From a virus, in the IMG/VR virus record IMGVR_UViG_3300018080_008375, positions 1-64,000 of that record: a stretch of 64,000 bases of DNA. One strand, given 5' to 3'. The position numbers were made by a program, and so were the translations under genes. This document shows positions 3,254 through 43,813 of this stretch, in pieces. Positions within the stretch are counted from its first letter, which is position 1. Every line of letters begins with the position of its first letter. Under the pieces are notes generated by a model. That model had not been told where the DNA came from. It saw nothing but the letters and a program-made list of their open reading frames with translations, and searched no databases.

Positions 3254-3330
3254 CAATAAAAACGGCTATCTATCAGTATTCTACCATTATGTTGCGTCAC
3301 ATTAAACGGTGGTTCGACGGAGGTAGAATA

Positions 3331-3996
3331 ATGAGAAAAAAGTGGACCGATAATCAGCTGGTCAAAGCAGTAGCTTCTGGATGCTGTATGGCCGACGTAC
3401 TTAGGGCTCTTAATATAGTACGGTCCGGAAATACAATGCGTCTTGTACGCAAGCACATTGACAGGCTTGGTTTAAAAACATGTCATTGGGTTCGACCAAG
3501 AAGAAAGGCTGTAAGAATATCCGACGTTCCCATAGCCGATATGTTTGTGATAAACAGCGAGTTTTCCAAGGAATCGATACGCAGGCGGGTTAAAAAGGAA
3601 AATTTGCTCCCATACGAATGCTTTGAATGCGAGTTAATAGAATGGCGCGGAAGCAAAATATCGCTCCAGTTGGATCATATTAATGGCAACAGGCGCGACA
3701 ACAGGCTGCAGAACCTTAGATGGTTATGTCCGAATTGTCATAGTCTGACGCCGACATGGGGAACTAAGTCAAGAAAGAAGGAAGATAAATATTGTGTCGA
3801 CTGCGGTTGTAAAATATCGCATAGGTCGACACGATGTCGCATTTGCGCCAATAGGTGTTTTCCAAATCAGACGAAGATAGAGTGGCCTCCTACTAGTGAG
3901 CTCGTCAGGATGGTCAAGGAAACATCATTTGTTGCCGTCGCACGCAAGCTGGGCGTATCAGATAACGCTGTTAGGAAGAGAATAAAGAATCACTAG
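3331..3996 (+). CDS. HNH homing endonuclease
   Basis: LQLDHINGNRRDNRLQNLRWLCPNCHS motif, Zn ribbon and C-terminal HTH; AT-rich; its stop overlaps the next tRNA. Confidence 0.9.
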   Translation: MRKKWTDNQLVKAVASGCCMADVLRALNIVRSGNTMRLVRKHIDRLGLKTCHWVRPRRKAVRISDVPIADMFVINSEFSKESIRRRVKKENLLPYECFECELIEWRGSKISLQLDHINGNRRDNRLQNLRWLCPNCHSLTPTWGTKSRKKEDKYCVDCGCKISHRSTRCRICANRCFPNQTKIEWPPTSELVRMVKETSFVAVARKLGVSDNAVRKRIKNH

Positions 3997-4067
3997 GGTC
4001 CGTAGTGTCAATGTAGCATCCCGGCCTCTTAAGCCGGTGGGTGGAAGTTCAAGTCTTCCCGGGCCCA
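3996..4067 (+). tRNA. tRNA-Lys(CTT)
   Basis: Acceptor GGGTCCG/CGGGCCC; anticodon arm CCGGC-CTCTTAA-GCCGG. Confidence 0.9.
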
Positions 4068-4068
4068 C

Positions 4069-5027: not shown

Positions 5028-5102
5028 TCGGGTGTAGCTCAATCGGAAGAGCGGCGGGCTCTGACCCCGCGTCTGTTGGAAGTTCGAACCCTCCCACCCG
5101 AG
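5028..5102 (+). tRNA. tRNA-Gln(CTG)
   Basis: Acceptor TCGGGTG/CACCCGA with G73; anticodon arm GCGGG-CTCTGAC-CCCGC. Confidence 0.88.
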
Positions 5103-5603
5103 CTTGTGATGCTGGTCATGCCATCGTGTATCTCGGCATGGCAGTTTGCGCATACTAGGGCGCATTTTTTGAGTTCTTTCTCAACTCTCGCCCATGATAG
5201 TGTTGATCCGCTACTGATGCGGAATTTTTTGGATGTCGGATCCAAGTGGTGAAAAACAAGTGCTTTTGCGCACCGTTTGTACCCGCATACTATACACTTG
5301 CCGCCTTTGTGTTTTATTGCCTTGAGTTTTTGACGGCGGCGGAACGAGGCAACTGCTTTTTTATTGCTGCTCGGTTTTTTTTTTGCTGTGCTTTCGTGCG
5401 CGCGACGATGTAAGACATGCTTTGGAGCAGTATGTTAAACTTGAGGAATATGGTTTTCCGCATAGTTTACAGGTGTTTTCCGGTTTTCGTTTGGGCGATT
5501 TTCTGTTATTGTATGATGCGGCGCATGACCTTGAGCAGAATTTCGGATTGTGCGTTTTTCGCCCGCAAGTAAGACATTTCGTCATAATAATCTCCTTTGT
5601 CAT
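5039..5603 (-). pseudogene. HNH endonuclease split by a frameshift in an A10 run
   Basis: The N-terminal Zn-finger ORF (5361-5603) joins KAVASFRRRQKLKAIKHKGGKCIVCGY...FHHLDP...CALVCANCHAEIH if the T10 run at 5375-5384 were T9. Confidence 0.8.
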
Positions 5604-5617
5604 AACATATCAGGAAT

Positions 5618-5740
5618 TCCAGGGTAGTTCAAGGGTAGAACGGGCGGCTGTGGGCATTTCTGCGGCTCAGATAATAGGGCAGGTCGGCACTGCCAATGCT
5701 ACTAACCGCCAAGTTGGGGGTTCGAGTCCTCCCCCTGGAG
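5618..5740 (+). tRNA. tRNA-Asn(GTT) with a 51-nt insertion in the anticodon
   Basis: Acceptor TCCAGGG/CCCTGGA with G73; GGCGG-CTGT[5652-5702]TAA-CCGCC; normal D and T arms. Confidence 0.85.
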
Positions 5741-5744
5741 CAAA

Positions 5745-5987
5745 ATGACGACGACAGAGCAGGCTCTCGAATGGTTCAATGAGGGCGAGGAAAAGGGCAT
5801 GGACTGGATGCTCCTGGTGCGCAACGCGCAGACATGCCATGTCATGCCGGTGTACGTGTCGCCTAACAGGAGCCTAGACAGGGAGCTGCCGAAATGGCGG
5901 AAGATCTACAGGGTGATTGCCGTGTATGATTTGAATCGAGGGTTCAGCAGGCAGTCCGATTCATGGAAGACGGACATTTGGCTGTAG
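5745..5987 (+). CDS. hypothetical protein, paralog of 4316-4522
   Basis: See paralog. Confidence 0.65.
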   Translation: MTTTEQALEWFNEGEEKGMDWMLLVRNAQTCHVMPVYVSPNRSLDRELPKWRKIYRVIAVYDLNRGFSRQSDSWKTDIWL

Positions 5988-6104: not shown

Positions 6105-6437
6105 ATGGACATAGACAAGGATCTTGAAAACGCCTGTATCGTTGTTGCCGGCATCAACGAGCAAATGCGCGTTATCATGGAAGGCATTAGCAGCAAGGCT
6201 GAAGGCACGATTTTTGGCACGACGCTCCATATAGAGCATGTTCCTGGAAGCTACACGACCATCATGGCCGGCGACGAGGTAATGTGGGACTCCGAGGACG
6301 AGAACGACGAGGGCGACAGTTCGTACGAGGCGATGCGCACGCATATCGAAAAGCGGATGCGCGAGCTGCTGGCCGCCGTAAGGACCATGAATGCTGCGTT
6401 CAGGGGAAGGCAGAGAGAGCGGGCGGTGCTGCCATGA
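6105..6437 (+). CDS. hypothetical protein
   Basis: ATG after a purine-rich RBS. Confidence 0.65.
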   Translation: MDIDKDLENACIVVAGINEQMRVIMEGISSKAEGTIFGTTLHIEHVPGSYTTIMAGDEVMWDSEDENDEGDSSYEAMRTHIEKRMRELLAAVRTMNAAFRGRQRERAVLP

Positions 6438-6510
6438 GGCGTCTTCTGTGGATAGCCATGATTGGAATCGGCCTGTGGGCATCGATGCGGGCATGCGCGG
6501 AGATCGTGAT

Positions 6511-6768
6511 ATGAGTTCCACCGCTGGATTCCTGATGACGCCAAGGGACTTGGAGAACGAGTTCAACAAGGTCAAGGACCTTCTGCTTGCGCATTTGAAA
6601 GAAGAAGGATATGTTTCCGGCGAGGATGCGGAAGACCTCATGCTCACGAGGCAGGTTCTTCTGAAAAAGCCCAGTCTTATTTCGGGACTATACAACCACA
6701 TACTTGGAAAGACTGCGGATACTCGTAGGTTCATGATTGTCAAGGGGCGAGGGCAAGAAAGAGAATAA
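6511..6768 (+). CDS. hypothetical protein
   Basis: ORF in operon. Confidence 0.55.
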   Translation: MSSTAGFLMTPRDLENEFNKVKDLLLAHLKEEGYVSGEDAEDLMLTRQVLLKKPSLISGLYNHILGKTADTRRFMIVKGRGQERE

Positions 6769-41811: not shown

Positions 41812-42971
41812 TTGTCCACTTTTTTGCCGGATCTCCACTGATAGCATGACCAGTACTTCGCCTTTGTCTTGTCTTTGGCGGATTCGCTGTCGCATTTGTG
41901 CCGAGAACGGAAATTTCTCCTGCGTTCCGGGTCGTCGCGCCTGATTTCCATTTCCGGGTCGCCAAACTGTATTTTGCGCACCTTCTTGGTTTTCGGGTCC
42001 TTTACAAAGACATGAAACTTTTTCTTGTTTCCTGGCGGGTTGCGAACCGGGTCGTTCAGCTTGATCTTTTTTCCTTGGTATTCGGCAGCCGACACATGTA
42101 GGCTGCTCTTTTTGGGTTTGGAGAATTCCTGGATCTTCCTGAACGATGCCTCGAATTCTTTTTCCATATCGATGATGGCTTGTTTTTTGTCGGTAATTTC
42201 TTGTTCAAGTTCTTCCCATCTGGGAGAGAGCCTGGAGCGTATCTCCTGGATCTCTTTGGCGCGCGGGTTTTTTCTCTCTATGCGCAGCATGCGCGCGTAT
42301 TCGGGACGCATTTTTTCCCTTTCGATGTTGAGCGTTTTCAGCTCCTGCCTGGCTCTTGGAATCATCTCCTCGCTAAGCTGGCGGGCGGCGTCTATTTCGC
42401 GCTCGAGCCTTGACCCCTTGGCCATTTTGGCGATGTCGGATATTTTCCAGGCGGCGTAGTGAAGCTCGTTGTCGAATGCGTGGAACGGCTTGAGGCCTTT
42501 TGACATGACATAGTTTATGAACGACTCCTTGTCCGTGAAGCCTAGGAGGCGCGTGGCGGCATAGGTGGTCGTGTATATCTTTTCTCCATTTCGGGTGTTG
42601 CGCTGGACAAAATCGCGCAGGCGCCCTGACACAGAGCGCGGAAGCTCTGAGAGGGGCATCTTGTACAGCTCCTCTTCCACGAGTTTGACCTCGTGAGGGG
42701 ACAGCGGTTCGCCTCGGTTCATTTTCTCTTTTAATTCCGCAGCTCTCCTGGCACATTTTGGACATTGCGACATATTGGGCGGAATTTCTTTTCCGCATAT
42801 GCGGCATGATGGTCTTTTTTCAGGTTTTTTTTCTTTGCGTTTTGTTTTGTGTGCGGACATCGGTCTGTCCGGGCAGTTTGGGCAGGTTGAAAGGTTTGCG
42901 GAAAACTTTCCGCCGCATTTCGGGCAGATGCGCCATCTGCCGGCTCGTTTGAACATGGGGCGTGTTGTCAT
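41808..42971 (-). CDS. hypothetical protein (Zn ribbons plus C-terminal phage domain)
   Basis: CPKC/CRIC motifs; C-terminus KKFHVFVKDP...FGDP...RRNFRSRHKC...YWSC. Confidence 0.75.
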   Translation of the reverse strand: MTTRPMFKRAGRWRICPKCGGKFSANLSTCPNCPDRPMSAHKTKRKEKKPEKRPSCRICGKEIPPNMSQCPKCARRAAELKEKMNRGEPLSPHEVKLVEEELYKMPLSELPRSVSGRLRDFVQRNTRNGEKIYTTTYAATRLLGFTDKESFINYVMSKGLKPFHAFDNELHYAAWKISDIAKMAKGSRLEREIDAARQLSEEMIPRARQELKTLNIEREKMRPEYARMLRIERKNPRAKEIQEIRSRLSPRWEELEQEITDKKQAIIDMEKEFEASFRKIQEFSKPKKSSLHVSAAEYQGKKIKLNDPVRNPPGNKKKFHVFVKDPKTKKVRKIQFGDPEMEIRRDDPERRRNFRSRHKCDSESAKDKTKAKYWSCYQWRSGKKVDN

Positions 42972-43045
42972 GTCGCACTCCTACTGATGGTCAGTTATAT
43001 CTATTCGTGATTATTGATAGAATTTTGCCTAACAAGGATGGGACA

Positions 43046-43813
43046 ATGCTGTTCAAAGAGTTTGATGCGCGGATGCGCGTATACGAGACGGCGCACGACC
43101 AATGTGTTCTTCCTGGGGTATACATGGTTGCACGCCTTGATGGAAGGTGTTTTACGCGCCTTACAAAGGTACAAAGGTTTGAGAGGCCGTTTGACGTCGA
43201 TTTTCGCGACCATATGGTCGCCGTTGCGTGCCACTTGATGCGCTGTGGATTCAACGCAACATACGCTTACATACAGAGCGACGAAATTTCGCTGCTATTT
43301 GATTTGGCAGAAAACACTTTCGGTCGCAAGCTGCGCAAGTTAAATTCCGTGCTGGCAGGGGAGGCAAGCGCTAAGTTCACAAAATGCCTCGGCGGAGGGG
43401 ACATGGGAGTGTTCGATTGCCGCATTTCCCAGCTGCCGCGCACAGGCGATGTGGTTGATTACTTTCGCTGGAGGCAGGAGGACGCTTATCGCAATGCGCT
43501 ACATGGTCACTGCTATTGGATGCTTCGCGGCGATGGCAGGAGTGCTTCCGAAGCTACGAGCTTGTTAAGCGGCAGTTCGTCCTCCGACAAGCAAGAGCTG
43601 CTGTTTTCCAATGGGACGAACTTCAACGGCATTCCATTGTGGCATAAGCGCGGAACTGGGATATATTGGGAAACATACAAGAAGAAAGCTGCCAATCCAG
43701 TTACCGGCGACAAAGTGGATGTCGAGCGCAGGCGCATTAGAGTTGATTTTGAGTTGCCGATACATGATGAATATGCGTTGTTCGTGCGCCGTCTGATCGG
43801 CGTTTTGACATGA
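43046..43813 (+). CDS. Thg1-like protein (tRNA-His guanylyltransferase / 3'-5' polymerase)
   Basis: ARLDGRCFTRLT, YIQSDEISL, FDCR, DYFRWRQEDAYRN and KRG. Confidence 0.93.
   Translation: MLFKEFDARMRVYETAHDQCVLPGVYMVARLDGRCFTRLTKVQRFERPFDVDFRDHMVAVACHLMRCGFNATYAYIQSDEISLLFDLAENTFGRKLRKLNSVLAGEASAKFTKCLGGGDMGVFDCRISQLPRTGDVVDYFRWRQEDAYRNALHGHCYWMLRGDGRSASEATSLLSGSSSSDKQELLFSNGTNFNGIPLWHKRGTGIYWETYKKKAANPVTGDKVDVERRRIRVDFELPIHDEYALFVRRLIGVLT

Follow-up and report, generated by a model that had tools for sequence, protein, structure and literature searches.

A tRNA-shaped insert in the anticodon of a phage tRNA-Asn gene: a likely member of a widespread mini-intron family, possibly excised by tRNA-processing enzymes

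Self-splicing introns are, to our knowledge, the only kind attributed to the tRNA genes of bacteria and of their viruses. Group I introns without an open reading frame (ORF) of their own can spread together with a free-standing homing endonuclease, an arrangement known as collaborative homing and exemplified by cyanophage psbA and F-CphI. Elements of tRNA-like shape are also cut from longer RNAs by RNase P and RNase Z, as in MALAT1 mascRNA and in mitochondrial tRNA punctuation, and in phage T4 an anticodon loop nicked by PrrC is healed by Pnkp and sealed by Rnl1. For phages one report of short tRNA inserts is known to us: the tRNA genes of Lak megaphages carry introns that were called 'enigmatic', one of which, in a tRNA-Thr gene, was noted as tRNA-like (Devoto et al. 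2019, PMC6784885). Here we describe a 51-nucleotide (nt) insert in the anticodon loop of a tRNA-Asn gene at positions 5618-5740 of a 64,000-nt stretch of viral DNA (the window), which is the first 64 kb of the 99,821-bp IMG/VR record IMGVR_UViG_3300018080_008375.

The insert and the Lak introns alike are short, lie in anticodon loops of phage tRNA genes and lack a described splicing route; the Lak tRNA-Tyr example, set against the window's intron by description only, differs in being about 93 nt long and in having been placed at 37/38 by the eukaryote mode of tRNAscan, and the text of that report describes no family, geometric rule, enzyme model or nuclease partner (PMC6784885). With group I tRNA introns and collaborative homing the insert shares its place after a U in the anticodon loop and a nuclease gene beside, not inside, the intron. 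It has, however, no catalytic core, no terminal G and no match to group I introns in Rfam, and other enzymes must excise it. Archaeal bulge-helix-bulge introns are likewise short and removed by proteins, and some of them, in tRNA-Asn of Thermoplasmata and related archaea, lie at 35/36. These introns lack a T-loop hairpin and use their 3' end to pair with the 5' exon (the 'aga...ccgccg' type), whereas the window's insert has no 3-4-3 motif, no EndA was found in its 99.8-kb record, and a transfer-messenger RNA (tmRNA) in the window points to a bacterial host. In mascRNA and mitochondrial punctuation an embedded tRNA-shaped fold signals both cuts, as it would here, but the flanks are not rejoined, while those of the mini-intron are tRNA halves needing ligation. 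T4 repair offers the precedent of a phage ligase sealing a break in a tRNA anticodon loop, and Rnl1-family genes occur in both complete intron-bearing genomes discussed below; it differs in being damage repair with end healing, whereas the proposed ends of the mini-intron would need none and ligation would be routine maturation. A full-text literature search returned no paper on this tRNA-Asn mini-intron family, its geometry or its splicing route.

An earlier, sequence-only reading of the stretch had placed a tRNA-Asn gene with a 51-nt insertion in its anticodon at 5618-5740, and two programs now agree on it. ARAGORN in its default mode, which makes no intron search, called no tRNA-Asn at 5618-5740; with the -i option it places a tRNA-Asn(gtt) at 5618-5741 that contains an intron of 51 nt ('gctgt-Intron-taacc'). 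The Rfam tRNA model matches 5618-5740 from end to end with 47.3 bits (gathering score 29) and a single 54-nt insertion in the anticodon loop. The parts of the gene are as follows.

5618..5651, + strand: 5' exon of tRNA-Asn(GUU), with the acceptor 5' strand, the D arm, the anticodon stem 5' strand and the loop bases C32 U33 G34 U35 (from ARAGORN -i, Rfam and the sequence)
5652..5702, + strand: 51-nt mini-intron with the shape of a tRNA without its anticodon arm (from ARAGORN, Rfam, the fold of the insert alone and a register score of 11/12 at distance 13)
5652..5658, + strand: acceptor-like 5' strand GGGCATT; G1 stands opposite A50 (mismatch) and nt 2-7 pair with 5695-5700
5659..5671, + strand: D-arm-like hairpin, with a 4-bp stem TCTG/CAGA and a loop CGGCT containing GG (from minimum free energy (MFE) folds; the analogy with a D arm is our own)
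5672..5677, + strand: connector of 6 nt
5678..5694, + strand: T-arm-like hairpin, with a 5-bp stem GGCAG/CTGCC and a 7-nt loop GTCGGCA, immediately next to the acceptor-like 3' strand
5695..5701, + strand: acceptor-like 3' strand AATGCTA
5702, + strand: discriminator-like C, the final intron base, which puts the 3' splice site 13 nt past the 7-nt loop, like tRNA position 73
5703..5740, + strand: 3' exon, with U36 A37 A38, the anticodon stem 3' strand, the variable loop, the T arm, the acceptor 3' strand and the discriminator G; no CCA is encoded

Together the exons form a complete bacterial-type cloverleaf with an acceptor stem of 7/7 bp, a D stem of 4 bp, anticodon and T stems of 5 bp each, the T loop TTCGAGT and a discriminator G, G73 being the identity base of asparaginyl-tRNA synthetase. 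The splice junction cannot slide, as the upstream exon ends in T and the intron in C, and the intron starts with G and the downstream exon with T; CTGT+TAA is therefore the only cut that gives a 7-nt loop with GTT. The earlier proposal that excision of 5652-5702 restores the loop CTGTTAA, with the insert at site 35/36, is thus confirmed by a unique junction. Folded alone, the insert takes exactly the tRNA-like shape listed above, the MFE structure being identical to the centroid, and the paired ends (GGCATT/AATGCT) with two inner hairpins appear in the MFE folds of both the precursor and the insert alone, in line with the small enclosed stems that had been noticed before.

Related inserts were sought with a pattern made up of the tRNA-Asn D arm, CTGT, 30-60 nt, TAA and the T arm, to which an anticodon-stem filter was added. 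The metagenome search returned at least 120 stretches, and the family counts given below are those among the matches listed. The same pattern found 94 stretches in species genomes, mostly archaeal, and one true case in viral contigs, a 34%-GC phage fragment (L005/G001) in which an insert of 44 nt occupies the same site. For close relatives of the window, searches of viral contigs with exact exon and intron patterns and with the neighbouring protein gave no match, and the phage collection yielded only an unrelated tRNA.

The matches were sorted into four groups. Tandem tRNA-Asn genes were discarded as artefacts of the pattern, introns beginning with 'ta' because they slide to the canonical archaeal 37/38 site, and archaeal introns fixed at 35/36, for example those of Thermoplasmata, because their 3' end pairs with the 5' exon as in the bulge-helix-bulge type. 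The remaining group comprises about 38 distinct introns, the window's included, that are fixed at 35/36 within tRNA arrays of the phage type; a locus holds as many as 22 tRNAs, and L013 has a tmRNA as well. Inserts measure about 34-58 nt, and at least 31 distinct introns come from metagenomes. The acceptor stems of the exons pair 7/7 in nearly all listed loci and do so with many unrelated sequences, the T stems pair 5/5, and a discriminator G is found in the genes of 36 of the 38 listed introns; stems that vary and yet stay paired, intact T stems and G73 indicate that the exons are under selection.

The introns have no primary sequence in common apart from the T-loop, and they follow one layout. 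A helix begins at intron nt 1 or 2 and is followed by a variable linker, often AAAGGTA or a small hairpin; then come a 3-5-bp hairpin with a 7-nt T-loop-like loop (T[TG]CRANT), the 3' strand of the first helix and a short tail. In tRNA itself 12 bp are stacked between the T loop and the 5' end; counted from the T loop, the discriminator at position 73, where RNase Z cuts, comes 13 nt later and the CCA end at position 76 comes 16 nt later. A register score out of 12 was computed for each intron by pairing its nt 1-7 with the 7 nt located 3' of a hairpin with 5 bp and a 7-nt loop and by adding the five stem pairs; the distance from the end of the loop to the 3' splice site was left out of the scoring. 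At least 9/12 was reached by 34 distinct listed introns, with a distance of 16 in 26 and of 13 in 5 of these 34. Archaeal 37/38 sliders served as a control, and 7 of 42 reached 9/12, with scattered distances. Across the family alignment 82% of cells pair in register, against 28-48% when the strands are slid by 1-3 nt, and most paired positions show 4-6 pair types (covariation). Intron position +1 is G in 30 of the 38 listed, and a G1.A72 mismatch is kept in 25 of them.

The window's insert lies between U35 and U36 of an intact tRNA-Asn(GUU) with G73 and shows both the 12-position stack, with 11 of the 12 pairs formed in the fixed register, and a distance of 13 to the 3' splice site. Shuffled versions of it reached 11/12 in 872 of 200,000 cases, and in 40 of 200,000 the distance was also 13 or 16. 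At least 31 unrelated sequences place this stack precisely in step with both splice sites, which argues for a selected design rather than debris. The comparison with relatives that the sequence-only reading had recommended reveals an insert design conserved across a family, though no close relative of the window was found, and on these sequence comparisons the insert is very probably a real member of a conserved, widespread and barely described family of tRNA-shaped mini-introns. That 5652-5702 is the genuine intron of a functional phage tRNA-Asn gene is a stronger claim, which the features of the sequence make likely in our judgement.

Members occur in cultured phages as well. Agrobacterium phage Atu_ph07 carries a 46-nt member on the minus strand at NC_042013.1 323904-324023, where there is no annotation; its genome paper lists tRNAs for all amino acids but Asn and Thr (PMC6102473), and the split gene is the only tRNA-Asn seen, the whole genome not having been scanned. 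Sinorhizobium phage phiM12 has a 46-nt member at NC_027204.1 94960-95080, annotated in RefSeq as a pseudo 'tRNA-OTHER'; the link was made with L021 as the query, through the exon and the intron start only. A member is present in phiM7 and phiM19 too, judged from matching hits, and L013, another member of the family, had no match among cultured phages. The genomes of Atu_ph07 and phiM12 each encode an Rnl1-family ligase (PF09511, 105.7 and 90.1 bits) and a PF09414 ligase. In phiM12 a second pseudo 'tRNA-OTHER' of 91 nt lies just upstream of tRNA-Cys, at NC_027204.1 96296-96386 (L232 2831-2921); ARAGORN could not resolve it, and it may be another interrupted or odd tRNA.

The shape of the introns suggests a route by which they could leave the transcript. 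RNase P would take the intron for a tRNA and cut U35|G1 at its 5' end, leaving a 3'-OH on U35; RNase Z would then cut after the discriminator-like C51, directly before U36, leaving a 5'-phosphate on U36; the tRNA's own stems would hold the two exon halves together; and an ATP-dependent RNA ligase of the T4 Rnl1 type would close the nick left between 3'-OH and 5'-phosphate in the anticodon loop. At the 5' site the sequence is U(-1)|G(+1), a context favoured by bacterial RNase P, an enzyme that gauges a distance of about 12 bp from the elbow of the T-loop, and the sequence features of an RNase P substrate are present (acceptor/T-type stack, T-loop elbow, U(-1) and G(+1)). At the 3' site of the window the discriminator-like C51 is followed by UAA, and a discriminator followed by U is the context preferred by RNase Z on precursors lacking CCA. 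Both enzymes leave 3'-OH and 5'-phosphate ends; such ends would suit an Rnl1-type ligase with no need of end healing and would not fit RtcB, which needs a 3'-phosphate. It seems likely, judging from this design, that the intron is excised and the tRNA rejoined, while for the particular succession of RNase P, RNase Z and Rnl1 the case for and the case against appear evenly poised. The sequence-only reading had offered three options, namely a protein-spliced mini-intron, the relic of an intron and an anticodon-masked tRNA. The first comes closest, with the correction that the likely cutters would be enzymes that trim tRNA ends in general, namely RNase Z and the RNA-protein enzyme RNase P, and not a splicing endonuclease acting with RtcB.

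Several observations weigh against this interpretation. The CTGT...TAA pattern and the anticodon-stem filter make restoration of the anticodon loop true by construction, and it is therefore not evidence; the independent evidence is confined to tRNA features beyond the pattern, outside which lay the acceptor stem and the discriminator. The folding energies of precursor and insert are no better than those of shuffled sequences (z -0.75 and -0.63) and were accordingly not counted. The window's loop GTCGGCA fits the consensus T[TG]CRANT at positions 55-57 and departs from it at 54 and 58, so that the window's intron is treated as a divergent family member; the loop of L105 has the same G54/G58 variant. 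In several arrays an intron-less tRNA-Asn stands beside the split copy, which need not then be essential. No gene for RtcB, EndA/tRNA_int_endo (PF01974), RNA_ligase or RNA_lig_T4_1 turned up in the 99.8 kb of the record, an outcome that is uninformative when only about 25% of the genome is covered, and Pfam identified a Thg1-like protein, an ADP-ribosylglycohydrolase, an RNase HII and others among 20 larger ORFs of the record, and no ligase; the search for RtcB, an RNA ligase or a splicing endonuclease that had been suggested with the first reading thus came back empty for this part of the genome. Genes of the Rnl1 and Rnl2 kinds are common in T4-like and jumbo phages, and their presence in two of two genomes is for that reason weak support. 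The main weakness lies at the 3' site. In most members it falls at the equivalent of position 76, after tails that are purine-rich and mostly not CCA, and a canonical RNase Z cut after position 73 fails to explain this distance-16 majority, which keeps a dedicated nuclease in serious contention. Cleavage after position 76 is nevertheless described for some RNase Zs acting on precursors that contain CCA, and pre-tRNAs without a D, T or anticodon arm are also among the substrates of the archaeal enzymes (PMC7479834).

A dedicated endonuclease of phage or host would recognise the tRNA-like fold or the loop/helix junctions, and RtcB would join the halves if the cut left a cyclic phosphate and a 5'-OH, an Rnl-type ligase otherwise. 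Such an enzyme would account for the 3' sites at 76 and the non-CCA tails. According to our reading of the alignment, the tails of the distance-16 introns can pair with C32-U35, which would make the cuts symmetric at the 3' ends of a 4-position helix, and the widely kept G1.A72 mismatch (25 of the 38 listed) and the other tRNA-handling genes of the record, such as the Thg1-like one, point the same way. The spacings of 13 and 16, however, correspond to the two natural 3' ends of a tRNA and not to one fixed distance across a helix; the 99.8-kb record has no EndA or RtcB, and no candidate gene recurs with the intron save the HNH gene described below, which is absent near it in Atu_ph07, L104 and L121. 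We consider this explanation somewhat unlikely. That the RNA is processed and never rejoined, the mini-RNA or the halves being useful in themselves, for instance as a decoy for host tRNA-targeting nucleases or as a regulator, and no Asn decoding being supplied, is quite unlikely. It would agree with the intron-less tRNA-Asn kept beside the split copy in several arrays, with the strongly conserved T-loop geometry and with the fact that RNase P and RNase Z, left to themselves, cut and do not ligate; but the lack of any common intron sequence beyond the T-loop fits a processing signal better than a specifically targeted RNA, widely diverged exons still have G73 and a complete cloverleaf, and the Atu_ph07 paper reports no Asn tRNA (PMC6102473), just as no other was called in the 99.8-kb record. 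The anticodon-masked tRNA proposed earlier is also less likely, given that the exons keep the identity features of tRNA-Asn across wide divergence and that in Atu_ph07, reported as lacking an Asn tRNA, the split gene is the only one seen, the whole genome not being covered by the scan.

We regard as very unlikely the idea of a dead tRNA, in which the insert would be merely a scar or an immunity device against the neighbouring HNH nuclease and the RNA functionless. The linkage with HNH genes, the pseudo label of the phiM12 gene in RefSeq and the frame shift in the window's own HNH gene would suit it; a scar, however, would not have preserved 12 stacked positions aligned with both junctions across at least 31 unrelated sequences, nor compensatory changes in the exon stems. 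The recurrence of the same compact design at this site in that many unrelated sequences speaks in the same way against the suggestion that the insert is the relic of an intron. As to a degenerate remnant of a self-splicing group I intron, the 5' exon does end in U and group I introns are found in neighbouring phage tRNA genes (L007 6342-6533), but the 51-nt length, the terminal C and a conserved design unrelated to the group I core effectively refute it. The class fails on size, on the core (P3-P9, usually at least 200 nt) and on the terminal G, and Rfam Intron_gpI had no match at E<=10 on 5560-5800, while the same library finds the L007 group I intron with 62.5 bits; the earlier remark that the insert is too short for group I and ends in C (C5702) therefore holds. 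So does the remark that it shows no clear bulge-helix-bulge: the MFE fold lacks the 3-4-3 motif and has instead a 5x5 internal loop followed by a 6-bp helix, with the sites 1 position apart across the helix on inspection. Cleavage by RNase III was rejected as well, by inspection only, as the sites would give a 1-nt rather than a 2-nt 3' overhang and the helix is short and interrupted.

Excision by tRNA-processing enzymes, which we favour, concerns the RNA; the persistence and spread of the intron at the DNA level probably involve a neighbour. An HNH gene just upstream had been pointed out in the sequence-only reading, and it is indeed there, on the minus strand and with one frame change.

5039..5603, - strand: gene for an HNH endonuclease, divided over two frames and flanked by tRNA-Gln and the split gene (Pfam HNH 17 bits, just below the cut-off)
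5603-5361, - strand: zinc-finger N-terminal part with two CxxC...FCSxxC repeats
5341-5039, - strand: HNH domain, ...FHHLDP...CANCHAEIH

The C-terminal codons of this gene overlap tRNA-Gln (5028-5103) in antisense, and its frame switch falls exactly at a run of ten A (5375-5384), which could reflect decay, an error of assembly in the homopolymer, or slippage during transcription or translation. In 8 metagenome loci the split tRNA-Asn gene has, at a distance of 4-278 nt and in various orientations, a homologue of the HNH domain (40-54% identity, E 1e-17 to 1e-27). In phiM12 an annotated HNH gene, AB690_gp346, adjoins the split gene and is homologous to that of the window (44.6% identity, E 3e-23), and no HNH gene was found near the intron of Atu_ph07. 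In L057 an HNH ORF fills the spacer between the intron-less and the split Asn genes, a spacer that measures 7 nt in the related arrays L104 and L121; such a pattern of presence and absence is typical of free-standing homing endonuclease genes. The linkage between HNH gene and intron is well supported, and the arrangement of the genes suggests a free-standing homing partner in preference to a former ORF of the intron. The nuclease would cut the uninterrupted tRNA-Asn genes of competing phages, while the intron would shield its own gene by interrupting the anticodon region and would pass into the cut copy when the break is repaired. Collaborative homing offers the analogy, and cooperation of nuclease and intron in their spread would be the simplest reading.

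The intron-less tRNA-Asn that accompanies the split copy is atypical, with a short D loop, a T loop GTGCGAG or GTGCGAT and a different anticodon stem (L057 5008-5081, L104 445-518, L042 5537-5610 and similar cases), whereas the body of the split copy is of the canonical bacterial type; judging from the sequences, this difference would fit a nuclease that targets the canonical one. Another, different endonuclease gene is found in the window at 3289-3996 (+ strand), adjoining tRNA-Lys (3996-4068), with an HNH_3 domain (Pfam, 27.6 bits) and a C-terminal helix-turn-helix. Its homologues occur beside the tRNA with a group I intron in G001 (L007 6649-7362) and in L021 and L119, and phage tRNA arrays appear to be crowded with nucleases of the homing type.

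If excision by RNase P and RNase Z, rejoining by a phage ligase of the Rnl1 type and spread by an HNH nuclease through uninterrupted tRNA-Asn genes are put together, these introns would form a third mechanistic class of tRNA introns, a mobile tRNA mimic with neither a catalytic core nor a dedicated splicing endonuclease. We advance this combined proposal tentatively and rate its chances as somewhat less than even.

Other inserts accompany the family. In its arrays (L057, L042, L097, L104, L121, L151, L195 and others) ARAGORN calls short inserts in further tRNAs, among them Phe(gaa) with 30 nt, Gly(tcc) with 54 nt, Gln(ttg) with 63 nt and Glu(ttc) with 51 nt; such calls suggest that tRNA-Asn is not the only tRNA to be interrupted in this way. 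Inserts of about 190-290 nt, possibly group I introns, are called in the same arrays. In L007 (G001) the tRNA at 6318-6601, which adjoins the tRNA-Asn with the 44-nt intron, holds a group I intron at 6342-6533 (Rfam Intron_gpI, 62.5 bits), and group I intron and mini-intron thus coexist in one array. Many Thermoplasmata and other archaea among loci L131-L224 (for example L134, L157 and L165) have 30-36-nt tRNA-Asn introns fixed at 35/36; the 3' end of these (...ccgccg) pairs with the 5' exon, which marks a separate class in the bulge-helix-bulge style.

As for the record that carries the split gene, its completeness according to CheckV is about 25% for 99,821 bp, which makes a phage genome of several hundred kb probable. 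GC content in the window is 51-58% with a constant strand skew, and the + strand of the window bears 31 tRNA genes and one tmRNA. The split gene is the sole tRNA-Asn that ARAGORN called with intron search in the 99.8-kb record, and a repeat search of the same 99.8 kb found no second copy of the insert, which is therefore not a multi-copy miniature inverted-repeat transposable element (MITE) there. A scan of the record for further mini-tRNA shapes gave 376 matches against about 280 in shuffled sequence and was too unspecific for use. An 80-aa ORF begins 4 nt past the tRNA-Asn gene (5745-5987, + strand) and recurs unchanged on a contig of 254,806 bp that is represented in the protein collection; a longer assembly of the same or a near-identical phage thus exists. 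A Thg1-like tRNA 3'-5' nucleotidyltransferase is encoded at 42962-43813 on the + strand (Pfam Thg1 107 bits, Thg1C 62.8 bits), and Atu_ph07 likewise encodes a Thg1-like protein, gp227 (PMC6102473).

The 'enigmatic' short inserts of phage tRNA genes gain a testable form from this analysis, namely a family defined by its single insertion site, a rule of geometry (a stack of 12 positions and a 3' site equivalent to 73 or 76), an enzyme prediction and a candidate homing partner, and the culturable pairs phiM12/Sinorhizobium and Atu_ph07/Agrobacterium make experiments possible. Standard annotation overlooks the split genes or labels them pseudogenes, so that phage tRNA sets are undercounted; Atu_ph07 was published as being without a tRNA-Asn, yet it carries an unannotated split one. 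If the proposed route is true, phage RNA ligases would have a routine splicing job beside damage repair, and a selfish insert would have become nearly harmless by borrowing the tRNA-processing enzymes of the cell.

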